Shown here: positions 93 to 12,533 of the stretch, in pieces
How positions within the stretch are numbered: the stretch's first letter is position 1
Layout: every line of letters begins with the position of its first letter
Assembly (NCBI GenBank): GCA_937919925.1
Contig: CALFOT010000102.1
Span: 1 to 12,753, forward strand
Source of the DNA: an uncultured bacterium
Lineage (GTDB): Bacteria > Planctomycetota > UBA1135
DNA length: 12,753 bases
Direction of reading: 5' to 3'
Translations under genes and position numbers: made by a program
Notes under the pieces: generated by a model
The model's database searches: none
What the model saw: the letters and a program-made list of their open reading frames with translations, nothing else
What the model was told of the DNA's origin: nothing

Positions 93-105
93 GCCTAATC
101 CGGGA

Positions 106-131
106 ATAGTGGGAGGGAGCCATCCCACTAT
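106..131 (+). promoter_or_regulatory. 9-bp perfect inverted repeat ATAGTGGGA-N8-TCCCACTAT about 90-100 bp upstream of the sigma-54 -24 element; candidate enhancer (UAS) for a bacterial enhancer-binding protein
   Basis: Left arm 106-114 and right arm 123-131 are exact reverse complements. The position, about 100 bp upstream of the -24/-12 promoter, is the classical location of NtrC-type activator sites. Confidence 0.35.
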
Positions 132-207
132 GTGAGCCAGCATTTGCGCGGGCCTTTGTGGCTAGCGTCAACTCAAGCTGAAGGCGCCCCAGGTTGGAAC
201 ATCACTT

Positions 208-223
208 TGGCACGCGCCTTGCA
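208..223 (+). promoter_or_regulatory. sigma-54 (RpoN) dependent -24/-12 promoter, perfect consensus TGGCACG-N4-TTGCA
   Basis: TGGCAC at 208-213, spacer gcgcc, TTGCA at 219-223. The GG and GC dinucleotides are exactly 10 nt apart. The predicted TSS near 233-235 is about 20 nt upstream of the ATG at 254. An NtrC-family activator is encoded in the same gene array. Confidence 0.7.
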
Positions 224-253: not shown

Positions 254-805
254 ATGAAACTACTCACTCTTACTGTCTTAATACTCACAGCATCTTGCGC
301 TGCTCCGGAGGTTGAATCCGGTCCTGACACGATTCAACTTCGCTCAGCGATTTCAACCGCTCTTCTTGGTGGTGATGTCACCACGGCCGAAATGGCGGCC
401 CGCGAAGCAGAAAGCACTTTGCCCGGGGATGTTGTGGTTGCATTGCTCGCTGCTGAAGCGCATGCGGCTTCAGGCAACCCAAATGCAGCAATCGCCAGTC
501 TCGACCGCGCCATCATCGTGGCAACTACCGATGAGTTACTCCGACACGCTTATCGCAATCGCGGTTCACTCTATATGCAAGCTGGTCGCCCGACAGAAGC
601 ATTCGATGACCTTCAGCAGGCCTATGAACTCGGTGACACAAGCATGGCGTTACTCCGCGACCTTGGTGCCGCAGCCTATGGCTCCGGCAACTTCCAGGCT
701 GCTCGTGCGGCTTGGGAACAACTTCCCGACAACGATCGCAAGAGTGTCGACACCGTAGTCGGCCCCGGTTTTTTCCTGGAGAAGTCCGTCTCCATCAATC
801 GCTGA
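254..805 (+). CDS. secreted protein or possible lipoprotein with TPR-like repeats (183 aa)
   Basis: The N-terminus MKLLTLTVLILTASC is a classic signal peptide with a Cys at the end of the h-region; the lipobox is imperfect (T at -3). The body is Ala/Leu-rich with repeated helical pairs typical of TPR (e.g. AIASLDRAI...AYRNRGSLYMQAGRPTEAFDDLQQAYELGD). Confidence 0.8.
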   Translation: MKLLTLTVLILTASCAAPEVESGPDTIQLRSAISTALLGGDVTTAEMAAREAESTLPGDVVVALLAAEAHAASGNPNAAIASLDRAIIVATTDELLRHAYRNRGSLYMQAGRPTEAFDDLQQAYELGDTSMALLRDLGAAAYGSGNFQAARAAWEQLPDNDRKSVDTVVGPGFFLEKSVSINR

Positions 806-826
806 TCACCAACTGAGGACCCAACC

Positions 827-1864
827 ATGACCCTTTTTCTTAATCTAATCACCCTGGCTTTACTCGGGCTTCCACAACAAGAAGGCACTCAAGGTGAGAC
901 TGTGCAATCACCGTCAAGCTCGCAACAAGCCGGTGCCAGCCTCGTACTGCCCGACTTCGATCCTGCCGTTTCCTTTAATCAACTTGAACAAGGAATGCGT
1001 CGCTTGGATCCCGTCACAAAAACACTGCGTGATGCCAACGAGACCATTCATCCTCTGGTCGAGGAGTTCAAGATTGACCCCTCTCTGGAAAACCAGGCGA
1101 AACTGGAAACGGCCTTAGCGAAGTTCACCGCCGATCTTTCACGCAAGATACGCAGTGCTCTTGCTGCCCATGAAAAGGTAACCTTCGCATTTCAAGATAT
1201 CGTGCACGGTGTCAAAGGAATGGGGGTATCCCTTGAACTGTACTCTGCTGATCTGAAGCAGCAGGCCGCCACCGAAGAAGAAGCGCTCGCCGAGAGCGTG
1301 AAGCAGCTAGAGGAGGTAGCCGAGGCTTGGGATGTAGCCGAGGATGCTGAAGAAAAGGAGTCCTTGATGGAACAGTTCAAGGAGCTCTATCGGCTGCAAC
1401 AACGGCAAGTCTATCGCGCACGATATTTAGGTGCATTGGCCAATCACTACAAGGATCTTGCCGGCGGCGTGGTGCAACTGGATGGTTCCCTACGCATGGT
1501 GCATGGTCGCGTTGAGGATGCTTATGATCGGCTCGAAGATGCAGGTGAGATGCTTGCATTTGCCGCAGGCTTCCGTCGCGATGCCACCGGAATCGTAGCC
1601 CACTACCAGTCGTTCTTCGGCCAAGGGAACGATTCGGTGCGCAATGTCCTGGAGCGGATTCAAAGTATCGAAGGACGTCTCGAGATCTTCGAAGGCGCGT
1701 CCAGTGTGCTGGACGAAGCTGGTCCATTGATGCCCATGTTGCATGACATGGATCAACTCACCCAAGGCTTGAAAAACAGTGCCGAAACCGCCGACCAAAA
1801 TGAAGTGGTATCAGCCGATAGCTATTGGGAATCAAAAATGCAAAAAACCCTGCAAGGGGAATAG
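827..1864 (+). CDS. secreted acidic alpha-helical/coiled-coil protein of unknown function (345 aa)
   Basis: GAGGA RBS at 815-819, 7 nt before the ATG. The N-terminal hydrophobic signal peptide is MTLFLNLITLALLGLPQQE. The body is Glu/Ala/Leu/Gln-rich with predicted long helices. No recognisable catalytic motif. Confidence 0.8.
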   Translation: MTLFLNLITLALLGLPQQEGTQGETVQSPSSSQQAGASLVLPDFDPAVSFNQLEQGMRRLDPVTKTLRDANETIHPLVEEFKIDPSLENQAKLETALAKFTADLSRKIRSALAAHEKVTFAFQDIVHGVKGMGVSLELYSADLKQQAATEEEALAESVKQLEEVAEAWDVAEDAEEKESLMEQFKELYRLQQRQVYRARYLGALANHYKDLAGGVVQLDGSLRMVHGRVEDAYDRLEDAGEMLAFAAGFRRDATGIVAHYQSFFGQGNDSVRNVLERIQSIEGRLEIFEGASSVLDEAGPLMPMLHDMDQLTQGLKNSAETADQNEVVSADSYWESKMQKTLQGE

Positions 1865-1900
1865 AGAAATAACCCTTTACTAAACAACCATCGAGGAATC

Positions 1901-2464
1901 ATGATGAACACAATCCTACTGTTTTTCCTGGCCGCAATGCCGCAACAGGAATTCGCCTCTGCACAAAGCGCATATGAGCAAGTGCAGCCCACCCCTTCCG
2001 AAACGGTTCAAGTCCTGGTTGAGCGTAACGAGTTCACTCTCGCTCGTGTGACTGAGTTGGAAAGGCGCATAGCTGCCGACGAGACAAAATTGATTGAACT
2101 GGATCGCTTAGAGGTTGAGCGCTATTTGGCACTCAAAGCTCACTTCACGGATAAGGAGCTTGAGAAACGCCTTCAGGCCGAAGCGCGTACTTTCGAACTT
2201 CGCCGCAAGGGAGTCAAGCAGTCCATCGAACTGACCAACATCAACTTAGAAGATGCTCGCAATCGACTTGCTAAGTTGGACGTGGATCTTCGTCTCGCAC
2301 GCATCGAGCAAGGTCTTGTTCAAAACACAGAGCCTGCACCTGGAACGCCAGTGGCGGATCGGCTTGAAGCCCGTTCACGCACCGTTCTTCTGGATCGCGC
2401 AATGGCCGTCGGCAAGTTTGATTTCGTGTCGATTCCGCACTCTTGGGTCACATTGGAATTCTAA
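1901..2464 (+). CDS. secreted coiled-coil protein of unknown function (187 aa)
   Basis: GAGGA at 1893-1897 just upstream of a tandem ATG ATG. The signal peptide is MMNTILLFFLAAMPQQEFASA. Charged heptad-like stretches follow (ELERRIAADETKLIELDRLEVERYL..., LAKLDVDLRLARIEQ). Confidence 0.8.
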   Translation: MMNTILLFFLAAMPQQEFASAQSAYEQVQPTPSETVQVLVERNEFTLARVTELERRIAADETKLIELDRLEVERYLALKAHFTDKELEKRLQAEARTFELRRKGVKQSIELTNINLEDARNRLAKLDVDLRLARIEQGLVQNTEPAPGTPVADRLEARSRTVLLDRAMAVGKFDFVSIPHSWVTLEF

Positions 2465-2476
2465 GGAGTGCGAATC

Positions 2477-3268
2477 ATGCGTTGTGCGGAACCCATTGCG
2501 TGGATTGTCTCAATAGGAGTTCATGCCTGGCTATTGATGCCAGTGCTTGCAGAAACAAGTGGGCAGTCAACATCGGCAGAAGATGTTGCAACTTCGATAG
2601 TAGCAGTGGCGGTTGTCGCCGAACGCCCCCCTTCAAAGGTCGAGGTTGAACCTGAACAGGAGCCGGAGTATTTGGAAGAGGAGATGGCATCACCGGTGGA
2701 GTTGCGCCCCGCTGACGAGCTCGCTGTGTTTGAGGAGGATGGCGATTCTTGGGAGGAGTCACTGGCAGAACCAGAAGGCAGCGGAGAATCGTCACCAGCA
2801 TCAGCAATGGTGTTTTCCGATGATGCCGTGCGAGCGCTGAACTTGGTGCTGGATCTTTCGGATCATGATCTATTCCTTTCTGCTGCTCAGGACTTAGAGA
2901 TACGTTTCCTCATCTATCCGGCTTCTAAGTCTCCCAAGTGGGTACTTGAGTTACATGGCCCTGGTCTTGAATCGGTGGCACAAATAACCCCTGATTCTTT
3001 GGGTCAGCTTTCCCGTCGCGCGCACGATTTGACTCCCGATCGGTTTTTCCGCACAATTCGCAATCGTGCAACACAATCGGCTGGATTTCCCTCAACCGGG
3101 GCTCGTTTGGTTGCTGCAGTACCCGCTGGAACCGACAAGATGTTCCTTGCTGCGGAAAGGAGTTACCTCCAACAAGCTGGGCCTGCAGCAGCTCAAATGA
3201 GAACTCTGCATGGGTGCCTTGTCCGCGACGGCAGCACTTGGCAGTTAGAGATAACGGGGGGGGTGTAG
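2477..3268 (+). CDS. membrane-anchored protein with TonB-like N-terminal SxxxH transmembrane anchor and acidic Glu/Pro-rich spacer (264 aa from ATG 2477; the longest ORF begins at GTG 2468)
   Basis: AGGAG at 2464-2468 is 8 nt before ATG 2477. The GTG at 2468 overlaps the RBS and is unlikely to be the start. The TM segment IAWIVSIGVHAWLLMPVL carries the S-x3-H spacing seen in the TonB anchor. It is followed by the acidic stretch VEVEPEQEPEYLEEEMASPVELRP. I cannot recognise a TonB C-terminal domain. Confidence 0.75.
   Translation: MRCAEPIAWIVSIGVHAWLLMPVLAETSGQSTSAEDVATSIVAVAVVAERPPSKVEVEPEQEPEYLEEEMASPVELRPADELAVFEEDGDSWEESLAEPEGSGESSPASAMVFSDDAVRALNLVLDLSDHDLFLSAAQDLEIRFLIYPASKSPKWVLELHGPGLESVAQITPDSLGQLSRRAHDLTPDRFFRTIRNRATQSAGFPSTGARLVAAVPAGTDKMFLAAERSYLQQAGPAAAQMRTLHGCLVRDGSTWQLEITGGV
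3256..3263 (+). repeat. G8 homopolymeric tract immediately before the stop codon of CDS 2477..3268
   Basis: A direct read gives ...acg ggg ggg gtg tag. The tract lies at the junction of two reading frames that are both open here (the 2477 frame and the 3214/3331 frame). Confidence 0.9.
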
Positions 3269-3330
3269 AATCTGAACCTCTTGGCCTCTTTCCAGCTACC
3301 CACCCCCAATTCCTGTTCTTCGGAGAACCC

Positions 3331-4845
3331 TTGGCTCATCTCTTAGTCGTTGACGATGCTTATCATAAAGTCCGCTCTGGTCTTGATGCGGTATTGGATG
3401 AACACCGGGTCTCTGGTGCCACCGACGGCGCCGCGGCTCTGCAGCTGATTGAATCCGAACCTTCCATCGACGTTGTGCTGCTTGATGTGCGCATGCCTCC
3501 TCTGGTCGGCAAGATTGAAGAAGAAGAAGGGTTGGCGGTATTCGAGAAAATAAAGGAGATTCGACCAGAGTTGCCGGTGATTTTCCTTTCGGCTTACGAC
3601 GATCTCCGCTTAGTGAATCGCGCTTTGACAGCAGGTGGTTTTTGGTATTTGAAGAAGCCACCAGACTTAGAGGAGACTCGAAGTTTAGTGCGCCGGGCAG
3701 TCGAGCTGAGCCTTGCACAGAGGGAATCTACCGAGAGGCGCGCTGCAGCGGAAGCTCGTCTCCAAGTGGTATCGCGTACGGGGATTCGCAGACCTAATAG
3801 TCGGCTGGTTGGTGATTCATTCGTTCTTCGTCAACTCAACTTAGAGTTGGCGATGTTCGCGGCAACGGATGTTCCTGTACTTTTGCTTGGTGAGACAGGT
3901 TGTGGCAAAGAGCTGTGTGCCCATGAACTTCACGATTTGTCTGCTCGTCGAAGTGGCCCTTTTATTGCTGTCAATTGTCACGAGCTTAATCATAGTGAAA
4001 CTGCTCAGTCGAGGTTGTTCGGCCATAGCAAAGGAGCCTTTACCGGTGCTGTTGAAGACACGCAAGGAGCCTTTGAATCGGCTCATGGTGGCACATTGTT
4101 CCTCGATGAAATCGGCGATTTAGATCTTGATATGCAAGGCCGGTTATTGCGCGTACTTCAAGAGCGTGAGGTCGTGCGCATCGGTGCTGGCGAACGCCCT
4201 CGCGCCGTAGATGTGCGCATGGTCTTTGCCACCAATCGGAATCCCGAGGTCCTTGTAAGTGAAGGTATCGTTCGAGAGGATTTCTACTATCGAATTGCAG
4301 TCGGGGTAGTGAGAGCACCGGCGCTTCGTGAGCATCTCGATGATTTGGAGTTGCTGGTGCCGGCTTTGTTGCAAGCTTCTCTTGTCAGGGATCGGATTCC
4401 TGAATGTACCGTAAGTACTGCTGTTTATCCTTTGCTTTGCAACCACAATTGGCCAGGCAACGTGCGTGAGTTAGAGAATGTTTTGAAAAGGGCTGCCGTG
4501 CGAGCAGCCTCTCAAGGTGTCATCTCACCAGAGCACATTGATTTGCCAAGAGATACCGTTGCCTCAGCCACTTCGGCAACAATCTCAGGCGATTTGTTCA
4601 CAGAGATCTTGGGAAATGGGGGGTACTCTGACGGCTTGAAGCGATTCCGAGACGAATACGGAGAAATCGCAATGCGTGAGGTCCTGACCAGAGCGGTACG
4701 TCTCTCGGGTAGCGTGGTGCGCGCCGGTGAACTGCTTGGCTTTGTTCACCCGGACAGCCGAGCGAAGGATTATGAGAACCTTCGAGCTTGGATGAAAACT
4801 CTTGGCTTGCGCAAAAGTGATATCGCAGAAGGAGGTCTCGCGTGA
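3331..4845 (+). CDS. NtrC-family sigma-54-dependent transcriptional activator / response regulator (receiver + AAA+ sigma-54 interaction domain + Fis-type HTH); likely TTG start at 3331, while the ORF-track frame opens at 3214
   Basis: Receiver motifs are present: LLVVDD, phospho-Asp context VVLLDVRMP, and the conserved Lys in WYLKKP. The AAA+ domain has Walker A GETGCGKE, the sigma-54 contact loop GAFTGA, Walker B LFLDEIGDL, and R-finger/sensor regions VRMVFATNRN and EDFYYRI. The C-terminal HTH is ...RAGELLG.... GGAGA at 3320-3324 lies 6 nt before TTG 3331, and the receiver fold begins at MAHLLVVDD. The stop overlaps the next start (GTGA at 4842-4845). Confidence 0.9.
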   Translation: MAHLLVVDDAYHKVRSGLDAVLDEHRVSGATDGAAALQLIESEPSIDVVLLDVRMPPLVGKIEEEEGLAVFEKIKEIRPELPVIFLSAYDDLRLVNRALTAGGFWYLKKPPDLEETRSLVRRAVELSLAQRESTERRAAAEARLQVVSRTGIRRPNSRLVGDSFVLRQLNLELAMFAATDVPVLLLGETGCGKELCAHELHDLSARRSGPFIAVNCHELNHSETAQSRLFGHSKGAFTGAVEDTQGAFESAHGGTLFLDEIGDLDLDMQGRLLRVLQEREVVRIGAGERPRAVDVRMVFATNRNPEVLVSEGIVREDFYYRIAVGVVRAPALREHLDDLELLVPALLQASLVRDRIPECTVSTAVYPLLCNHNWPGNVRELENVLKRAAVRAASQGVISPEHIDLPRDTVASATSATISGDLFTEILGNGGYSDGLKRFRDEYGEIAMREVLTRAVRLSGSVVRAGELLGFVHPDSRAKDYENLRAWMKTLGLRKSDIAEGGLA

Positions 4846-6467
4846 GTGAATTGATTTGCCCGGATTGTGAACAGCAGCTTGATGGCATCATAGATTTCTG
4901 TACGAACTGCGGCGCCAATCTTGAAGAAGTCGACGCCGGCAGCGACGTTTTCTTTGCGGACTCAGATTTTGAGACCACTGCTGAGGAGCCGCCTTCGCTG
5001 GAATCCTCCACTGTCATTTCGATGGAACCGATTGTTGCTCCATCGCCGCCGCCTGTTATCGCGCCACGAGTTGAAATTCCTTCTTCCAACGATGACCCCC
5101 CAAACCTGGTCATGGATACGGGGGTAAGCGCTCGCGTTGGTGAAAATGGTGTCCTCTGGTTCGGATTGGCGAACAATCGAACCTCCCGGATTAATGCTCG
5201 TCTTGCCGTCAATATGGATAAAGGGGCTCGCGAGATGTTTCACCATTTCAATGGGGAGCGCGAGCTGCGCGTTGGGCCATCCGGCGAAGGTACTGCTTCA
5301 GTTTCGTTCCGCGCTCAAGTAGCAGGTGAGTTTCCGCTTTCGGTCCGCCTCTTCGTCGAAGACTACCGTGCAAGCGGGAAGGTTTCATTCTACCAGGTTG
5401 CCGATCACTGTAAGGTTTTCTTCGGTATCTCTAGTCAACAAAGCGGTGGTTCCATCACCGTGCACAACGAAGTTTGTATCGATCGAAACTATGGCGGCGA
5501 TATCAGCATTCGCCCTGAAGCTCTGCGCAGCATTCAGGAGAAAATGGGAGTTAACGAAGGCGCAAACAGAGCTGCTCCCCAGGAGTTGCCGCTGGAGGCG
5601 CCAGAATCTGTGCAGGGTTGGATACAGCACTCTAGAAACGCCATTCGAGGTTCTCATCTCCGCTTGGATGTCATGCGGCTCGATAAGTTGTATCGGCGTT
5701 TCCATATCCTGGTTTGTAACGAACTCTGGTTTGGTCGTAATGATGTCACGCAACTTCCCGGAGGTCGTAGAGGATTCAACACCCTTGCTTTGCGTTGGCT
5801 TCCCTGTCGGTCAAAAGAGCAAGACCCTAAGAGTTTTTCCTTTAATCAGTCCATCAGCCGCCATCATGCCGGCATGTTGCATGCCGATGAAGCTGGCACA
5901 GCTATTAACTGTTGCTCCAGCTCACTTCAGGTAGATACCCATCAACTTGGCAAAGGAGATTCGCAGCAGTTTCATGCTGGATCCGCCTATCGACTCAAGC
6001 TCGGACATCCGGCCCTTGAGTTTGATATCACTCCTTTGACGACTTCGGGAGAGGATCCTTCGCAATGGTTGCGGGATTGGAACCAATTTACAGGTATGAG
6101 TGGAGCGATTGTTCATCCAACGCGTCACGATGCGATTCGAATCGACCGTGTCAATAACTTGGAGCAAGTCAGTTACGTCATGCTCCTGCAGTCTGCATCC
6201 ATTGGCGGTGGGCGCCGAGATGCTTGTTTTGTCAAGGGACTGCCCCCCGCAGTCTTGAGACTCGCGCGTTGTGGATCCAACCTATTCGTCTTGACTGGCC
6301 CAGATTTTGTAAATCAAGGTACTGCTGCTGCCGACGAAAGGTATTGGCGACCAATATGCGCAGGCGATCGGTACGACTCGGGCGAGTGGAGCTACCGGTT
6401 TTCGACATCTTCGGTTTCCGATACCAAAAGAGAAGATGATTTGGTGAGTGCCTTGGAGGACGAATGA
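4842..6467 (+). CDS. N-terminal zinc-ribbon (DZR-type, CxxC-N11-CxxC) protein with a central FHA-like domain (541 aa), GTG start
   Basis: GGAGG at 4831-4835 is 6 nt before GTG 4842. The N-terminus is MSELICPDCEQQLDGIIDFCTNCGANL, followed by a Pro-rich linker. The FHA signature elements are WFGRN...SISRHHAGM...EAGTAINC...LGKGDSQ...YRLKLG. The loop between the first and second FHA elements is longer than usual, so the call is moderate. Confidence 0.6.
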   Translation: MSELICPDCEQQLDGIIDFCTNCGANLEEVDAGSDVFFADSDFETTAEEPPSLESSTVISMEPIVAPSPPPVIAPRVEIPSSNDDPPNLVMDTGVSARVGENGVLWFGLANNRTSRINARLAVNMDKGAREMFHHFNGERELRVGPSGEGTASVSFRAQVAGEFPLSVRLFVEDYRASGKVSFYQVADHCKVFFGISSQQSGGSITVHNEVCIDRNYGGDISIRPEALRSIQEKMGVNEGANRAAPQELPLEAPESVQGWIQHSRNAIRGSHLRLDVMRLDKLYRRFHILVCNELWFGRNDVTQLPGGRRGFNTLALRWLPCRSKEQDPKSFSFNQSISRHHAGMLHADEAGTAINCCSSSLQVDTHQLGKGDSQQFHAGSAYRLKLGHPALEFDITPLTTSGEDPSQWLRDWNQFTGMSGAIVHPTRHDAIRIDRVNNLEQVSYVMLLQSASIGGGRRDACFVKGLPPAVLRLARCGSNLFVLTGPDFVNQGTAAADERYWRPICAGDRYDSGEWSYRFSTSSVSDTKREDDLVSALEDE

Positions 6468-7489
6468 GCCGTTTCGAAGAACGTATTCGCGCTGCCGAGG
6501 AAAGGGCGAAGGGTAGAGTCCAAGCGGCAGCAAACTGTCATTCCGCCTCGCCTGCGGAGCGTGGCACATGGGCTGAGTATCGGGAGCGCATGGACAGCCT
6601 ACGCAAGGAAATCGACAATCGGTTTCAATCGACCGGAAGTTATCAGAGCAAGGAATGCGGCCCTTTAGATCGCATTTTCCTCGAGCGTGCACTTTCCGCC
6701 CTGAAGCATGGCCTCGTTGAATCCTGTTTCTACAACTTAAGGATTCTCGCCCAAAAGGTGGCCCTCGATAGAGGGAGCCAAGACTTGAGCGCCCTGACCA
6801 CTGCTGGTGAGCGAGTACCGACGGTACGCAAAGAGCTTGGCTTGTTCCTTCAGGGCCGGGTTCCATGTGGAATCCTGGTGGCTGATCTTCTCCCAGATTT
6901 GGCGAGTGTTTTTTTGAAAACACTCCCGTTGCTTGAAGGTGCCGTAGTGGGAGGCTTGGCGATGGCGAAGGAGATTCCAGCTTTGGTAGATGCCGTCCTT
7001 TCGGGCATCGCAAGAGAAGCTGATAGTCTGCGCTCTCAGCGATTATCCTTATTCGCTCTTGTGCGTCGAGCATTGGAGATTGAAGGGCCAAGACTTCAAG
7101 AAGCGGACATGGATGTAAGCGTTGAAAACGAAGTGGAAGACGATCGCATTCATGCTGATGAACCACGTCTTCTCGATACTATCGTTGAGTTGTTAAGAAA
7201 CGCCGCAGTTCATCGAGAAGGAAGTGGTCGCGGGAAGGTGGTCATTAACTTGAGGCCGCGCGAGAACTATATTCACCTTGTGGTCTCAAGTCGACCTGCT
7301 CTTCCACCCCTCATCCCTCTTAATCGACTTTTCGAGACCGGAGTCTCGCGGAGGGAAGGTGGGGGCGATGGGCTTGCAACCGTCCAGCGCACCTTGACTT
7401 CCCATGGTGGCAGGGCGGAGCTTCAGTTTTCTTGTGGCAGTGGCACCTTCGACGTTTGCCTAGCCTTGCCTACCCGGCTTCCGGTTTAG
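6464..7489 (+). CDS. atypical histidine-kinase-like ATPase (GHKL/HATPase_c at C-terminus; no clear H-box; degenerate G1 box) (341 aa)
   Basis: ATGA overlap with the upstream stop (6464-6467). The N-box is LLDTIVELLRNAAVH, the F-box is LFETGVSRR, and the G2 box is GGGDGLATVQRTLTSHGG, with the typical HK ending GSGTFDVCLALP. The expected G1 position reads VVSSRPALPP instead of DxGxG. The N-terminal 230 aa are helical; H26 is the only weak H-box candidate. Confidence 0.65.
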   Translation: MSRFEERIRAAEERAKGRVQAAANCHSASPAERGTWAEYRERMDSLRKEIDNRFQSTGSYQSKECGPLDRIFLERALSALKHGLVESCFYNLRILAQKVALDRGSQDLSALTTAGERVPTVRKELGLFLQGRVPCGILVADLLPDLASVFLKTLPLLEGAVVGGLAMAKEIPALVDAVLSGIAREADSLRSQRLSLFALVRRALEIEGPRLQEADMDVSVENEVEDDRIHADEPRLLDTIVELLRNAAVHREGSGRGKVVINLRPRENYIHLVVSSRPALPPLIPLNRLFETGVSRREGGGDGLATVQRTLTSHGGRAELQFSCGSGTFDVCLALPTRLPV

Positions 7490-7498
7490 CCAAGCCGG
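7474..7498 (+). terminator. GC-rich 7-bp hairpin (CCGGCTT-N11-AAGCCGG) spanning the stop codon of CDS 6464..7489; possible weak or partial terminator or mRNA-stability element without a U-tract
   Basis: Arms 7474-7480 and 7492-7498 are exact reverse complements. It is followed by cccaggaatcgggg rather than a T-run. Confidence 0.2.
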
Positions 7499-7538
7499 CC
7501 CAGGAATCGGGGATAAATGAATCACATTTGGTGAGTTC

Positions 7539-7585
7539 CCCTGCATCTCAGGGAGTCTGGATTCACAAAAAACACCGATGCAGGG
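7539..7585 (+). promoter_or_regulatory. 9-bp perfect inverted repeat CCCTGCATC-N29-GATGCAGGG directly upstream of the second sigma-54-like promoter; candidate regulator binding site
   Basis: Arms 7539-7547 and 7577-7585 are exact reverse complements separated by 29 nt. The centre lies about 40 bp upstream of the -24 element at 7598. Confidence 0.3.
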
Positions 7586-7597
7586 CGTAGATGGCAG

Positions 7598-7613
7598 TGG
7601 CATGATGGTTGCA
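7598..7613 (+). promoter_or_regulatory. sigma-54-type -24/-12 promoter with one mismatch: TGGCATG-N4-TTGCA
   Basis: TGGCAT at 7598-7603, spacer gatgg, TTGCA at 7609-7613. The GG/GC spacing is correct. It sits in the only sizeable intergenic gap (119 bp) of the array, immediately upstream of the lipoprotein gene. Confidence 0.5.
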
Positions 7614-7635: not shown

Positions 7636-8748
7636 ATGACTACCATGCGAATCATCATCATTACTACATTGAGTCTCGTTGGCTGTGTGAGCCCCCCTCT
7701 TGGCTCTACTTTCGAGGATGCTCAGTCTCTCGCTAATCGCGGGGAGTTCGGAGCTGCAGTAGCTGTAGCAGAACCGCTGCTGCTCAGAACAACTTCAGTT
7801 TCTACACTTGAGGAGGTCTGTGGGTGGGCGCTAAAGGCCGGGCGGATGGAGCAGGCATATGATTTCTCCAATCGGCTCATCGGCTTCGAATCCCAATCAT
7901 GGGTTGGCCATCGCACTCGTGGGCTGGCTCTTGTTTCTTTAAAGCGGCTCAGTGCTGCGATTCCAGATCTTGAGTTTGTCCATCGTAATGGCCCGCCAGA
8001 TTCTGAAGTTCAACGCGCCCTTGGTCTTGCGATGGAATTTGTTGGAAGAGATCCAGGCAAGGCAAACTCCCTGCTAGTTTTATCTGGCTTCGATGATGAT
8101 GAGGTGACCGCCGCTCTCAGCCGCCTCGAAGTTCTGCTTCATCCCGCGCCACTGCCTTCCGTCACAGTTACCGACGAACCTGCCGCATGGACTCAAGTCG
8201 CCGCACTTGATTTGGCCACGACATGTTTTGTCTTAGATGAGCAGCTGAGGCTTTCGGGCTTCCTTCTCAAAAACCAGGAAGCCGCTGCTCTTACCGGCGA
8301 CGAATATGCATCTGGCTTACGCGCTGCCGACCGTCGTCGAGATGCTGCTGCCCTTGTCGACCTTCCAGACGAAGATGGCACAGCCGCCGTTCTCACTCAT
8401 TTCGTCGAAGTCGGTCTACTGAGTGTCGACAACAACAAAATCAACCCCGACGAGATTCTCCAGCGTGGTCAGTTTGCACAACTTGTAACGGACCTTCTGC
8501 GATTACTCGAGGAGGATAAAGGATTTGCGGTTGGAGGTGACGGTGAATCTCCTTTCTCGGACATGAGCGTTCGGCATCCCCGCTTTGCGGTTGCGAGCGC
8601 AGCTTGTGCGCTTGGTGTTCTGCACGCAGACGCATCGCGACGTTTTCGGCCTTCGGACCCGCTTTCTGGCGCGGAACTTTCCGACGCTCTCGACCTACTT
8701 CGCGAAGTTCTTCTTCGTTCTCCGCTTTACCAAGAGATGATTCGATGA
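7636..8748 (+). CDS. lipoprotein with TPR-like helical repeats and two C-terminal SLH (S-layer homology)-like repeats (371 aa from ATG 7636; the track ORF opens at TTG 7609, which overlaps the promoter)
   Basis: The lipoprotein signal is MTTMRIIIITTLSLVGC (lipobox LVGC). The SLH-like motifs are LPDEDGTAAVLTHFVEVGLLSVDNNKINPDEILQRGQFAQLV and FSDMSVRHPRFAVASAACALGVLHADASRRFRPSDPLSGAELSDAL. Both follow the F-x-D...A...G(I/V/L)...F-x-P...(I/L)-(T/S)-R/G-A-E pattern. Confidence 0.7.
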   Translation: MTTMRIIIITTLSLVGCVSPPLGSTFEDAQSLANRGEFGAAVAVAEPLLLRTTSVSTLEEVCGWALKAGRMEQAYDFSNRLIGFESQSWVGHRTRGLALVSLKRLSAAIPDLEFVHRNGPPDSEVQRALGLAMEFVGRDPGKANSLLVLSGFDDDEVTAALSRLEVLLHPAPLPSVTVTDEPAAWTQVAALDLATTCFVLDEQLRLSGFLLKNQEAAALTGDEYASGLRAADRRRDAAALVDLPDEDGTAAVLTHFVEVGLLSVDNNKINPDEILQRGQFAQLVTDLLRLLEEDKGFAVGGDGESPFSDMSVRHPRFAVASAACALGVLHADASRRFRPSDPLSGAELSDALDLLREVLLRSPLYQEMIR

Positions 8749-9803
8749 TAGCCCTCCTTTCGATTGCCTGTTTTGCTTTGGCTCAGCCACTTGTGGCTTT
8801 ACCGGCACAAGAACCTAGTCATGATGTCTCGGATCAATCTGCAAGGTCGACTTCACTCGAGGTCGCAGGAGAAGCTGTTGGGCTTACTCGTGAAGCTGCA
8901 ATATCCGCTGCGAAACAAGATGCCATGTCGCGCGCGATTCAGGAACTTTATCGCGAAGAAGGTCTTGCCGCACCCCTGCAGGCTGTTGCCGATCGCTTAG
9001 CAGCGCTGGATCGTTCACTCGGTGGTTTTCTTGCCGCTGAGACTCTTGATTCTGAATGGAAGGAAGAGACTAGTCTCGCGAAGGTTCGCTTGAAAGTCGA
9101 AGCCGACATCGTCGCTTTTCGTCGCTGTGCTTCACGTGCTCTGCGTGTGCAAGTAATTTGCACAGGCCCCCTTTCAGACCAGATTGCATCCAGTTTCAAG
9201 GAGAGGCTTGCCGCCGAAGGTTTTGAGGTGGTATTGGGTGGATCGCGGGAAGGCGCCGATGCGATTGTCATCGCCAAGCCGGTGCTCGATAAATTGCCAG
9301 GCGGCGAGGCAGGTTTCTCTTCTTGGCGCGGCGCCCTCACGATTGAAGTTCATTCGCTCTCGATGCGTGACGACGCCACAGTTGTGCTTGCTGATCGTCG
9401 ATTCGAACCAAAGGGAGCCATGGTCGGCAGCAATGCCCGTGAAGTGGCACGGAAGACCATCCTTCCGCTTTGTTCAGAGGCGGCAGATCTTGCCGCACAG
9501 CGTATTTTGAACGCAGCTTCGGCAAGTGCCCGTTGGACAATCTCCGTCGAAGGCGCAACCGAACGCTACCTCGTCGAAGATTTGCTCGACGCCATTACCC
9601 AACGAGGTGTTTCTGCCGGCGTGGTGGGGGTTAGTTCTCTCAGCTGGGATCCTCCGAATGCAACCTTCCGGTTGGTCGTCGATCGTCGTGGGGCGAATCG
9701 CCTTGGTGGTATCATGGGCACTCTGGATTTGTCTGAAGGTAGGCGGGTGCGGGTGTTACGCGAAGCAAACTCAACCATGATCGTTAGAATTGAATCCTCC
9801 TGA
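8745..9803 (+). CDS. secreted protein with N-terminal LPP20-like domain (353 aa from ATG 8745; the track ORF is artificially extended upstream to 8604)
   Basis: ATGA overlap with the stop of the lipoprotein gene (8745-8748). The signal peptide is MIALLSIACFALAQPLVALPAQEP. EVAGEAVGLTREAAISAAKQDAMSRAIQELY resembles the LPP20/FlgP-type lipoprotein fold signature. The C-terminal half (GADAIVIAKPV...LTIEVHSLSMRDDATVV) weakly resembles the CsgG/FlgO-type motif. Confidence 0.55.
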   Translation: MIALLSIACFALAQPLVALPAQEPSHDVSDQSARSTSLEVAGEAVGLTREAAISAAKQDAMSRAIQELYREEGLAAPLQAVADRLAALDRSLGGFLAAETLDSEWKEETSLAKVRLKVEADIVAFRRCASRALRVQVICTGPLSDQIASSFKERLAAEGFEVVLGGSREGADAIVIAKPVLDKLPGGEAGFSSWRGALTIEVHSLSMRDDATVVLADRRFEPKGAMVGSNAREVARKTILPLCSEAADLAAQRILNAASASARWTISVEGATERYLVEDLLDAITQRGVSAGVVGVSSLSWDPPNATFRLVVDRRGANRLGGIMGTLDLSEGRRVRVLREANSTMIVRIESS

Positions 9804-9810
9804 TTTTGTC

Positions 9811-10899
9811 ATGTATTTCCTTCTCACTCTTCCTCTCGTTCTGTTTCAGAACGGCCCCTCTCAGCTCGATGAGATTCTTCCCAGTCGAGCCGAAAGCCTT
9901 GCTATTGAGCTCGCCGCTGACTTGAATGAAAGCGGTATTCTCGGAGAGCATGGCATCCAAGCGTTCGCCTTCCCAGGTGCAATCGGTGATGTACAAGGCG
10001 CTTTTCATGACCGCCTTTTAAATCACATGTTGCGCGACTTTGGCTTGGAGTTGATTGCCGAGCGCGAAGAAAGGGTTCAAATACTGCAAAACTATTTCCG
10101 TAAAGATGGTTTTGAACAAGGCATCTATGATGGTGGCAGCCTAAAGAGTCTTGGTGGACAATTTTTGGACAACGAGGCGATTCTCGGCGCCAGAATTTAT
10201 TCGGTGGACGGAGCGGATGGGTTAGAGATATATGCTCAAGCTGAACTTTGGGATGCACGCCGCGCCGTCATGGTGTGGAATAAAACGATATCGCTCTTGG
10301 TGAAGGAACCGGTTTCTCCGCCTGTTGTCGTAGAGAAAGAGGAATCCTTATTCGTGCCAGTCCTAATCATTCTTGCTGGAATCATCGCCGCGATCGCCAT
10401 ATTCAGTCTAATGAATCGCAGGGAACAGATTGCGAAGGCTCAGCGACGTGGAGGGGCATCTATCGAGAGGCAATCGCAGAAAAAGCGCGACCGTGATTTG
10501 CGAGGTGAGGCTGCTCGACGAGCGCATGCAGGAGCAGATCGCTTGACCGCAGCAGCAAGCCAAGTCGATGCCGCAGCTCGTTCTATCTTCGAAAATTCAG
10601 GTGAAGACTTACGGTCGCTCGCAAGGAATTTCGAGAAGGCTGCCGCAGGTACATTTCGCCGTCCCGTAGAGGAGCGAGGTGATTCAGAGATTGCTGCTGC
10701 ACGCGCCCTAGCTGACCATGACGAACGTACACTCGGCCTAGTAGAGGAAATGGGTCGTACTGTTGATACCCTAGTTGCCGGGGCTTCTTCTGATTCCGCT
10801 GAGGCGGTAGCTAAGTTGGCTGCCAAGCTAGAAGACCTCATCCAGAGTGCTAATCACCGTCTCGGAGAACGCACTGACCTGATTCGTTCCAGTAGTTAA
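9811..10899 (+). CDS. bitopic membrane protein: signal peptide, periplasmic CsgG/FlgO/TolB_N-like motif domain, single TM helix, cytoplasmic charged coiled-coil tail (363 aa from ATG 9811; alternative TTG 9790)
   Basis: The N-terminus is MYFLLTLPLVLFQNG. The periplasmic region FAFPGAIGD...GLELIAEREERVQILQNYFRKDGFEQGIYDGGSLKSLGGQFLDNEAILGARIYSVDGADGLEIYAQAELWDARRAVMVW follows the motif ER..l..il.E...q.sG.yd....k.lG...gadaii.G.i......g..i.a.l.d..tg.vvw. The TM helix is LFVPVLIILAGIIAAIAIFSL, followed by an Arg/Ala/Glu-rich tail. Confidence 0.55.
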   Translation: MYFLLTLPLVLFQNGPSQLDEILPSRAESLAIELAADLNESGILGEHGIQAFAFPGAIGDVQGAFHDRLLNHMLRDFGLELIAEREERVQILQNYFRKDGFEQGIYDGGSLKSLGGQFLDNEAILGARIYSVDGADGLEIYAQAELWDARRAVMVWNKTISLLVKEPVSPPVVVEKEESLFVPVLIILAGIIAAIAIFSLMNRREQIAKAQRRGGASIERQSQKKRDRDLRGEAARRAHAGADRLTAAASQVDAAARSIFENSGEDLRSLARNFEKAAAGTFRRPVEERGDSEIAAARALADHDERTLGLVEEMGRTVDTLVAGASSDSAEAVAKLAAKLEDLIQSANHRLGERTDLIRSSS

Positions 10900-10907
10900 T
10901 AATTGTC

Positions 10908-12533
10908 ATGACCCCCTTCTCATTTCTGAAACGATGCCCTGAGTGTAAGAACAAGCTAGAGCGGGGAGCTAATTTTTGCGGGTGCGGTGCGCCGGTGCGT
11001 GACTTTCGTCGCACTTGTCACCACTGTCATCGCATCGTTGATGCCCAAGCGGAAAGGTGTGCTCATTGCAACGCCCTTCTTGCAGAGGTCGAACCTCGCT
11101 ATGTTTTGATTCGCTGGGCTCGCCGTTCGCGTGAATTTGCCCGACGCATTGATGTTGTGGCCTTCACGGAAGGCGAAGAGGTAATCACAGATTCGGGCGC
11201 GGCACTTCAGGGTGCACTTGATGGTGGTGTTACGGTCGAAGCCGGGACGAAAGCGTTACTTCTTGTTAACGGTAGCTTGGAGAAGGTGCTTGAGCCCGGT
11301 TGGACTTCCACAACCAGCGATGCTCTCTCGGTTTATTCAGGTGAAGAATATATTCACACTTTGACCGTGATTGCTGTTGACTCAAGCGACACCGATTTAG
11401 CATGGCGATTCCCGCTTGCACTTGACTCGAACTCGGATGCCGGTGATGAGAAATCTTCCGCGATGGCGCTCGTCACTAAAGATGGGTTTCGTGTTGCGCT
11501 AAGGTTAGGGATTACCATTAGCCTTGCCGATGCAGCGGCCTTGGCGAGTAATCTGCTCAAGGAGCAAGTTTCCATTACTGTCAGTAGTCTCGCCGCTTGG
11601 CTTGCGCCTACGGTAGACGCCGCTGTTCGAGAACTCGTTGGACAGACCGATAGCGCAGAATTAAGAACGCCAGATAGCAATTGGCGTAGCCAATTTGAAG
11701 GTTTGTTGCGCGATCGACTCCAGCGTGACCTTGAGGTTGTTGGCCTCCGAATGGAAAGGCTCAGGGGTTTTGGGCTGGAGAGTCCTAGGCTCAAAGAGTT
11801 GGAAGACGATCGAGAAACCACTGCAGTCATTCGTGGCAAGGCGGGAGAGGCTCGAGCAAGACTTGAGCACATCGAGAATCTTCAAGATGCACTTGTCAAG
11901 AAACGTCGTCTCGATGACAAGGCACGTCTGGAAATCGAGAAGTCGGGCATTCTCACCGACGCAGAGATTGCCGAACTTAATCGCCATGCAGATGATGAGG
12001 AACTCGGTTGGAAACACGCGCGCGAAATGTTGGCCGCGAAACACGCTGCAGGGGTTGAAGAAATATCGAAACGTGCGTCCTTGAAGCTATTCGTCGAAAG
12101 GAAGGAAGAGGAAATTCGTCTTGATGACAAGCGCAAGCGGCTCGATATGGACCGAGATGAGCGGGAACGCGATCACGAGGCTGATGTCGCTCTGAAAATC
12201 ATTGCTGCCAAACAGCAACATAAAATGGAACAGATTCAGGTCTTCCAGGATTGGGATGATCCCGAGAAAATCCTTACCGTTCTTGCTGGGATTAGTCCGG
12301 ATGCTGCAGAAGCACTTCGTGCAAAATATCAGCGTGCCAACGACGATGACCGCGTTGAGTTGCTCAAGGAAATGCAAGGAGAAATGTCCAAGGTTCAACA
12401 GTCTGCGATGGGTGGAATGGCCAGTGTTGCAGCGGCAAAGGCAACCACACGGTTAATTCCATGTCCACATTGTCGCATCAATGTTTCCGTTGATACAACG
12501 AAGTGCCCCTCTTGCGATAAGCTTGTGAAGTAG
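10908..12533 (+). CDS. soluble zinc-ribbon / SPFH (band-7, flotillin-like) / coiled-coil protein with two N-terminal and one C-terminal zinc ribbons (541 aa)
   Basis: The N-terminus contains CPECKNKLERGANFCGCGAPV and CHHCHRIVDAQAERCAHCNALL. The SPFH motifs are VEAGTKALLLVNGSLEKVLEPGW and MALVTKDGFRVALRLGITISLADAAALASNLL, plus a downstream GLRMERLRGFGL region. A long E/R/K/D-rich coiled coil follows. The C-terminus is IPCPHCRINVSVDTTKCPSCDKLV. No TM segment. Confidence 0.7.
   Translation: MTPFSFLKRCPECKNKLERGANFCGCGAPVRDFRRTCHHCHRIVDAQAERCAHCNALLAEVEPRYVLIRWARRSREFARRIDVVAFTEGEEVITDSGAALQGALDGGVTVEAGTKALLLVNGSLEKVLEPGWTSTTSDALSVYSGEEYIHTLTVIAVDSSDTDLAWRFPLALDSNSDAGDEKSSAMALVTKDGFRVALRLGITISLADAAALASNLLKEQVSITVSSLAAWLAPTVDAAVRELVGQTDSAELRTPDSNWRSQFEGLLRDRLQRDLEVVGLRMERLRGFGLESPRLKELEDDRETTAVIRGKAGEARARLEHIENLQDALVKKRRLDDKARLEIEKSGILTDAEIAELNRHADDEELGWKHAREMLAAKHAAGVEEISKRASLKLFVERKEEEIRLDDKRKRLDMDRDERERDHEADVALKIIAAKQQHKMEQIQVFQDWDDPEKILTVLAGISPDAAEALRAKYQRANDDDRVELLKEMQGEMSKVQQSAMGGMASVAAAKATTRLIPCPHCRINVSVDTTKCPSCDKLVK

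Follow-up and report, generated by a model that had tools for sequence, protein, structure and literature searches.

The intergenic regions ahead of the two operons in this planctomycete locus carry an 18-bp palindromic site, yGGGA-N8-TCCCr (often yGGGAG-N6-CTCCCr), which is probably the functional element inside two sequence blocks that an earlier reading of the same DNA had set side by side. We consider it likely that these dyads serve as upstream activating sites for the REC-AAA+ enhancer-binding protein (EBP) encoded in the locus, and that they define a small sigma-54 regulon of three operons; the assignment of the sites to this protein is deduced from sequence, and it draws on the distribution, conservation and helical phasing of the sites.

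The stretch analyzed here, referred to as the window, comprises 12,753 nucleotides of a contig that recurs almost unchanged across many aquatic metagenomes, and the copies that we designate L001–L010 are identical in both intergenic regions. One longer copy, L001 (15.4 kb), supplies the sequence upstream of the window. Within the window, TGGCA-N6-TTGC is matched exactly only at 208 and at 7598, in each case 31–32 nt 5′ of the first ATG of an operon, and both sites have the form of sigma-54 −24/−12 elements (TGGCAC-N5-TTGCW, with the GG and GC 10 bp apart and near a gene start). Counterparts of the first of these, P_tpr, lie 30–34 nt ahead of the same gene in three distant loci (L016, L019 and L020). 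A third perfect sigma-54 promoter precedes exbB, about 1.8 kb upstream of window position 208, and it has a dyad of its own, which places the ExbBD genes in the same predicted regulon. The coordinates of these and other features are collected in Table 1.

Table 1 Sites, promoters and genes of the locus and its relatives. Positions are those of the window unless a contig is named.
Feature	Position	Strand	Sequence or content	Remarks
Block 1	103–136		GGAATAGTGGGAGGGAGCCATCCCACTATGTGAG	Contains dyad 1a, a GGAAT flank that is not conserved and the first bases of weak site 1b
Dyad 1a	110–127		TGGGA-GGGAGCCA-TCCCA	Centre 89.5 bp upstream of the first T of TGGCAC; about −115 from the inferred start
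Site 1b (possible, degenerate)	131–148		TGTGA-GCCAGCAT-TTGCG	21 bp downstream of 1a; includes GTGAG; PWM score 3.5, top 0.25% of the window
P_tpr, sigma-54 promoter	208–223	+	TGGCAC-GCGCC-TTGCA	31 nt before ATG 254; identical in L001–L010
Block 2	7503–7535		GGAATCGGGGATAAATGAATCACATTTGGTGAG	Holds dyad 2a
Dyad 2a	7509–7526		GGGGA-TAAATGAA-TCACA	Centre 80.5 bp upstream of the first T of TGGCAT
Dyad 2b	7550–7567		AGGGA-GTCTGGAT-TCACA	Centre 39.5 bp upstream of TGGCAT; 41 bp from 2a
P_op2, sigma-54 promoter	7598–7613	+	TGGCAT-GATGG-TTGCA	32 nt before ATG 7645
exbB dyad (3a)	L001 756–773		in the context ACTGGGA-GCCGCCAC-TCCCACT	186 bp after the upstream gene
exbB promoter, sigma-54	L001 824–839		TGGCACTCTAATTGCA	Outside the window; 21 nt before exbB
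L016 dyads, TPR lipoprotein gene	L016 408–425 and 429–446		TGGGA-GCTTGCCT-TCCCG and TGGGA-GCGCGAAT-TCCCG	21 bp apart
L016 promoter	L016 497		TGGCATGGCGCTTGCC	31 nt before the TPR lipoprotein gene
L019 dyads, operon-2-like gene	L019 1776–1793 and 1798–1815			Promoter at 1844
L019 dyads, TPR gene	L019 8517–8534 and 8539–8556			Promoter at 8585
L020 dyad, exbB	L020 551–568			Promoter at 598
L020 dyads, TPR gene	L020 1695–1712 and 1717–1734			Promoter at 1796
Genes upstream of the window	Read from L001		Pkinase/FGE-sulfatase gene, exbB, exbD, 190-aa membrane protein	In this order; the last ends at window position 98
Operon 1	254–7489	+	TPR lipoprotein, 345-aa, 187-aa, 266-aa, REC-AAA+ sigma-54 activator, 541-aa zinc-ribbon and HATPase_c-only kinase-like proteins	
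TPR lipoprotein gene	254–805	+		First gene of operon 1
EBP	3331–4845	+	REC, AAA+ sigma-54 activation domain with GAFTGA, C-terminal domain	504 aa
EBP C-terminal 85 aa, presumed DNA-binding domain	4588–4842	+	AGELLGF...ENLRAWMK invariant	Strongly conserved
HATPase_c-only histidine-kinase-like protein	6464–7489	+		Stop codon 14 bp ahead of block 2
Operon 2	7645–12533	+	TPR/SLH-like lipoprotein, two proteins of unknown function, zinc-ribbon SPFH protein	
TPR/SLH-like lipoprotein gene	7645–8748	+		First gene of operon 2
Zinc-ribbon SPFH/Band-7 protein	10908–12533			Last gene of operon 2

The first-pass annotation had proposed that two blocks of about 33 bp, one in each intergenic region, represent a shared enhancer for the locus-encoded EBP. 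The sequences and coordinates of these blocks are accurate: both contain GGAAT-N-G-N-GG, their 3′ 15-mers agree at 11 of 15 positions, and they start 105 and 95 bp upstream of the TGGCA elements at 208 and 7598. The resemblance between the blocks is nevertheless at the level of chance and is no sign of relatedness. The best local alignment of 99–207 with 7490–7597 is the block itself, with a Smith–Waterman score of 10, compared to 9.0 ± 1.6 (mean ± s.d.) across 2000 dinucleotide shuffles, 31% of which score at least 10. In addition, both blocks begin shortly past the points where the preceding genes end (stop codons TAA 96–98 and TAG 7487–7489), such that a position of about −100 in the window species is simply where the short intergenic regions begin.

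The proposed alignment also placed a one-base gap in the middle of the block, while the informative register puts the gap between GGAAT and the left half-site, thereby pairing dyad 1a with dyad 2a. The offset between the two copies is then 9 bp (89.5 versus 80.5) rather than the 10 bp suggested earlier; the idea that both occupy the same face of the helix survived this correction and now extends to 13 sites. Two features of these regions had been overlooked. Block 1 is a near-perfect palindrome (ATAGTGGGAGGG/CCATCCCACTAT), with arms at 106–117 and 120–131 that are complementary at 11 of 12 positions and with dyad 1a in the context AGTGGGA-GGGAGCCA-TCCCACT, and the second intergenic region contains a further dyad, 2b. 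The enhancer proposal therefore fits the 18-bp dyad within the blocks, given its recurrence, conservation and phasing, but not the blocks as they had been delimited.

The words GGAAT and GTGAG, which had been put forward as half-sites, fared poorly in an orthologous locus that is 87% identical (L011), where they read TGATT and GCGAA while the core GGGATAAATGAATCACATTTGG is identical at 22 of 22 positions; a GGAAT half-site was also rejected on the grounds that its spacing to the dyad varies. GTGAG falls at the position of the left half-site in the possible site 1b, which weakly suggests that it belongs to a degenerate second tandem copy. A similarly degenerate copy is found 21 bp downstream of dyad 3a (TGTGG-GTATACCA-ACCCA in L001 and TGGGG...ACCCA in L002), whereas no scoring copy is found at the equivalent place ahead of the second promoter of the window.

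We evaluated the distribution of the dyad in several ways. Matches to GGGA-N8-TCMCA number four on both strands of L001, compared to 0.2 expected, and no shuffle equaled this count; all four lie 40–90 bp upstream of the three TGGCAY-N5-TTGCA promoters, and none are found elsewhere in the contig. The two dyads at P_op2 deviate from the consensus in having TCACA instead of TCCCA. Across 43 kb of sequence (L001, L016, L019 and L020), each of the seven exact matches to GGGA-N8-TCCC precedes a sigma-54-type promoter by no more than about 100 bp. A half-site PWM constructed from the distant loci only placed 110–127, 7550–7567 and 7509–7526 as the top three of approximately 12,700 window positions, with 110–127 the highest, although this ranking, like the pattern counts, is not fully independent given that the motif was first spotted by eye in the window species. 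The least biased assessment is a de novo enumeration of all 4352 palindromic 4-mer dyads, with spacers of 0–16, in the 130 bp upstream of each promoter and without prior information. In six distant promoters GGGA-N8-TCCC ranked first (5 occurrences in 4 regions; family-wise p of about 0.024), and the same enumeration in the window species yielded a tie for first place.

Orthologous loci provide a view of which parts of these regions are retained, and a comparison of this kind had been suggested as a check on the original blocks. The second intergenic region of L011 has diverged, with the stretch ahead of the dyad identical at only about 5 of 16 positions, yet both P_op2 dyads are kept (GGGATAAATGAATCACATTTGG at 22 of 22 positions and GGGAGTCTGGATTCACA at 17 of 17). 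At the exbB promoter, the strain variants L002 (236–284) and L001 (774–822) differ by 13 substitutions in the approximately 48 bp that separate the dyad from the −24 element, and the dyad is unchanged. The comparison thus bears out conservation for the dyad at orthologous promoters and not for GGAAT or GTGAG. The surrounding 260 bp of the exbB region are almost identical between L001 and L002, so that the 13 substitutions form a patch of local hypervariability or recombination. In L011 (3210–3225), the P_op2 counterpart has AAGCAT instead of TGGCAT as its −24 element and so is without the GG, while its −12 region and the two dyads are preserved; this may represent a weakened promoter or a sequence error.

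Few homologs exist of the 541-aa protein (5 clusters) or of the 345-aa protein (7 clusters), and the contigs that encode them yielded three more lineages with promoter regions. The flanking proteins in these distant orthologous loci (L016, L019 and L020) are 35–64% identical to those of the window. Here the GGGA and TCCC half-sites are retained and the spacers differ, and the sites are mostly arranged as tandem pairs 21–22 bp apart. No recognizable dyad was found at the exbB-type promoter of L019 (position 7383). Two other contigs (L012 and L013) contained no promoter regions of interest, and three (L022, L023 and L024) were uninformative, with a TPR gene that overlaps the upstream gene or a contig that is too short. 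A scan of genome contigs with the single 541-aa protein as a query returned no match; with an alignment as the query, only a NIOZ-UU38 Planctomycetota MAG was recovered, and the metagenome scan gave the same contig. A 21-kb contig from JGI sample 3300072015 encodes a 66%-identical ortholog and is fully syntenic.

The dyads also stand in a fixed relationship to the promoters. Distances from dyad centers to the first T of TGGCA are 37.5, 37.5, 38.5, 39.5, 59.5 (four sites), 70.5, 80.5 (two sites), 89.5 and 92.5 bp, which step by about 10.5 or 21 bp. Phase concentration at a 10.5-bp period was R = 0.90 for the 13 sites and R = 0.89 (p of about 2e-4) with one site per promoter, values that should be read with the caveat that orthologous promoters are not independent samples. 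Site centers fall between about −64 and −118 at 8 promoters in 4 lineages. Classical enhancer sites are located between −80 and −150, and several of the sites described here, centered at about −64, are nearer the promoter than is typical. Dyad symmetry, often in two or more copies, is found together with conservation amid diverging intergenic DNA and with a constant helical phase.

One may ask whether the likeness of the two blocks means anything at all, as they could be merely G-rich and C-rich words that agree by chance and share no function. The shuffles that equal the pairwise score and the loss of GGAAT and GTGAG in L011 are what such an account would predict. It fits the flanks only, however; the dyad within is exclusive to sigma-54 promoter regions, emerged from the de novo enumeration in distant loci and keeps a helical phase, and we therefore regard coincidence as a very improbable explanation of the similarity.

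The palindrome of block 1 could instead act at the level of RNA, with 106–131 forming a hairpin that terminates or stabilizes the upstream exbB-exbD-190-aa transcript. It begins 8 nt past the TAA at 96–98, and its stem of about 11 pairs contributes to a predicted folding energy of −24.5 kcal/mol for the 71-nt context; the z-score of this fold is only −0.69, however, and there was no match in Rfam. Other dyads moreover have non-complementary spacers and arms of 4–5 bp (e.g., GGGGATAAATGAATCACA), often come as tandem pairs, and can lie far from any stop codon, as in the case of the exbB dyad of L001. An RNA hairpin as the basis of the conserved element is thus scarcely credible. A Rho-independent terminator at 106–131 was specifically considered and rejected, as no U-tract or T-run follows position 131 and a terminator scan did not list the palindrome, in addition to the unremarkable z-score.

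We next turn to the protein that would read these sites. The EBP has clear matches to Sigma54_activat (1e-56) and Response_reg (3e-16) in Pfam, with the conserved aspartate context in REC and a lid domain following AAA+. No other product of the cluster resembles a regulator, and the EBP accompanies the dyads wherever a locus extends far enough to reveal both. Its reading frame is open from a GTG at 3214 (543 aa); orthologs in L016, L013 and P0015 begin with VAHLLVVDD, equivalent to about 3331, and on this comparison the 3214 start is probably over-extended. Matches in the PDB to FleQ, NtrC and ZraR reach only residue ~419, and the segment beyond them is the best-conserved part of the protein outside the ATPase, with 49 of its 85 residues invariant across five orthologs.

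The classification of this C-terminal domain proved difficult. Pfam gave no HTH_8 and no match of any kind at E ≤ 10, and sequence and profile searches of the PDB returned only noise. Alignment to Fis using hhalign paired GSVVRAGELLGF with GNQTRAALMMGI and was not significant (probability of 0.07%), and a single-sequence AF2 model was helical and of poor quality (pLDDT 59), with an empty Foldseek result. By these measures the C-terminus of the EBP is not recognizable as a helix-turn-helix of the Fis/NtrC HTH_8 type. A word-index homolog search with the domain recovered two fragments only, while an exhaustive HMMER search identified it in 18 representative clusters out of 1.84 billion; all ten of the clusters scanned against Pfam are REC-AAA+ activators, with the domain at the C-terminus of proteins of about 500 aa. 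The alignment of these clusters has the pattern A-G-x-L-L-G-F, approximately 10 residues, then Y-x-N-L-R-x-W-hydrophobic-x-x-L-G-L, which may recall a Fis-type helix-turn-helix whose turn carries an insertion. It is conceivable, though on balance doubtful, that the domain is an undescribed DNA-binding module that reads GGGA-N8-TCCC, perhaps as a Fis-like helix-turn-helix with 8–10 additional residues in the turn.

These results bear on an alternative scenario in which the dyads are genuine but are recognized by some other protein; candidates are an EBP encoded elsewhere, a repressor, an anti-activator and a nucleoid-type protein that would shape the promoter. The EBP of the locus would then act from solution or from other sites. 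EBPs that work without binding DNA include CtcC of Chlamydia and FlgR of Helicobacter, and this precedent favors such a scenario, as does the failure of the C-terminal domain to match known DNA-binding families in Pfam, the PDB or the Fis profile; our inventory of regulators also covers contigs only. The association of the dyads with a sole regulator across all lineages points the other way, however, as does the placement of its conserved C-terminal 85 aa where EBPs carry their helix-turn-helix. The A-x-x-LG...NLR-x-W/K-hydrophobic-K-x-LG pattern in that segment recalls Fis-type domains, insertion aside, and strict phasing with the −24 element is a hallmark of an activator that touches the holoenzyme. 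On this evidence we view a different binding protein as unlikely.

A model in which the EBP itself occupies the dyads can be outlined as follows. Dimers of the EBP would use the conserved helical domain at the C-terminus to bind the dyads, and the REC domain would probably be phosphorylated by the HATPase_c-only protein, presumed to be its partner. Neighboring dimers, 21 or 41 bp apart on one face of the DNA, could then promote assembly of the AAA+ ring, which would contact the sigma-54 holoenzyme at the −24/−12 element on the same helical face; the GAFTGA loop and ATP hydrolysis would subsequently drive promoter opening. The predicted targets are exbB-exbD-190-aa, the operon from the TPR lipoprotein through the EBP and kinase-like genes, and the operon from the TPR/SLH lipoprotein to the zinc-ribbon SPFH protein. 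As the EBP gene lies within one of these operons, the circuit would be positively autoregulated. On the more doubtful view that the C-terminal domain is an undescribed DNA-binding module, this subfamily of planctomycete EBPs would act from phased sites 21 bp apart, at about −64, −85 and −106, which is nearer the promoter than is usual; with two or three dimers in place, the DNA would serve as a template for the activator ring almost beside the holoenzyme, with no long DNA loop.

The proposed arrangement has parallels in well-studied systems. NtrC (NRI) acts at glnAp2 through two strong dimer sites (TGCACC-N5-GGTGCA) that are separated by approximately three helical turns and precede a sigma-54 promoter. 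The present sites are similar in that dyads of about 17–18 bp, here presumed to serve a REC-AAA+-DBD regulator, occur in multiple copies, at integral helical turns that would promote oligomerization, ahead of a −24/−12 promoter, and in that the gene for the regulator resides in a target operon, here a predicted one; they differ in their GGGA/TCCC half-sites, in a tandem spacing of 21–22 or 41 bp rather than about 32, in proximal sites at about −64, and in a C-terminal domain that is not recognizable as HTH_8. The upstream activator sequence of NifA is TGT-N10-ACA, and its function is reported to depend on the face of the helix (Buck and colleagues, 1987). NifA sites share with those described here short conserved half-sites, a long variable spacer, a location about 100 bp upstream of sigma-54 promoters and a matched helical face, whereas the half-sites here are of 4–5 bp with an 8-bp spacer, the input domain is REC and not GAF, and the sites are often tandem. 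PspF, which has no REC domain and is controlled by PspA, regulates the membrane-stress psp operon from upstream sites with the aid of IHF. In both cases a locus-specific EBP is associated with a small envelope-related regulon (here SPFH, TPR and ExbBD-type membrane proteins); in our case, by contrast, the EBP has a REC domain, no PspA homolog was detected and the motif is unrelated.

A phylum-level literature search found no EBP binding motif for Planctomycetota, and the exact motif string was likewise unmatched. The element is probably of an ordinary kind, an enhancer for a sigma-54 activator, with a previously undescribed motif that is likely read by an unclassified DNA-binding domain, in a phylum that has received little study. 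While the general picture of sigma-54 enhancer action is unchanged, these findings offer a testable cis-regulatory code (yGGGA-N8-TCCCr together with a −24/−12 promoter) for an uncharacterized sigma-54 regulon in uncultured marine and aquatic Planctomycetota. They would tie three operons into one autoregulated unit that comprises ExbBD, TPR lipoproteins, coiled-coil proteins of unknown function and a zinc-ribbon SPFH protein, and they point to a small EBP subfamily with a presumed DNA-binding domain that lies outside current domain libraries.

Several other features of the locus were noted in the course of this work. Dyad 2b is flanked by a perfect 9-bp inverted repeat, CCCTGCATC-N29-GATGCAGGG (7539–7547 and 7577–7585), which is not conserved in L011 and for that reason is probably incidental, and a direct repeat, AGGAAAAC-GTTAC-AGGAAAAC, lies directly upstream of the exbB-promoter dyad (L001:~728–750). 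The 541-aa zinc-ribbon protein (4842–6467) is very rare, with 5 clusters among 5.8 billion proteins; it is always encoded between the same two genes, those for the EBP and the kinase-like protein, and has many invariant residues, with an N-terminal zinc ribbon as its sole known domain. A G homopolymer just 5′ of the stop codon of the 266-aa gene (3256–3263) is G8 in the window and in L001 and G9 in 3 of 10 metagenome contigs (L005, L007 and L008), where the 266-aa ORF is placed in frame with the open frame that precedes the EBP and the fusion is called as a 789-aa protein. This difference could be an error of sequencing or assembly, or it could reflect slippage or genuine heterogeneity in the population; in orthologs, the 266-aa-type gene and the EBP gene remain separate, with a gap of about 62 nt. 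An apparent 365-bp deletion in L003 and L005 was rejected as biology, being a scaffold gap of Ns, and position 1 of the window is the exact end of an N run in scaffold L003 (L003:~1640–1745). Lastly, a long polypyrimidine (CT-rich) tract follows the Pkinase/FGE-sulfatase gene and is itself followed by a GC hairpin, CGCGGCG-N-AGCCGCG(C); this arrangement is conserved in three divergent lineages (L001:575–660, L016:20–100 and L020:385–505).
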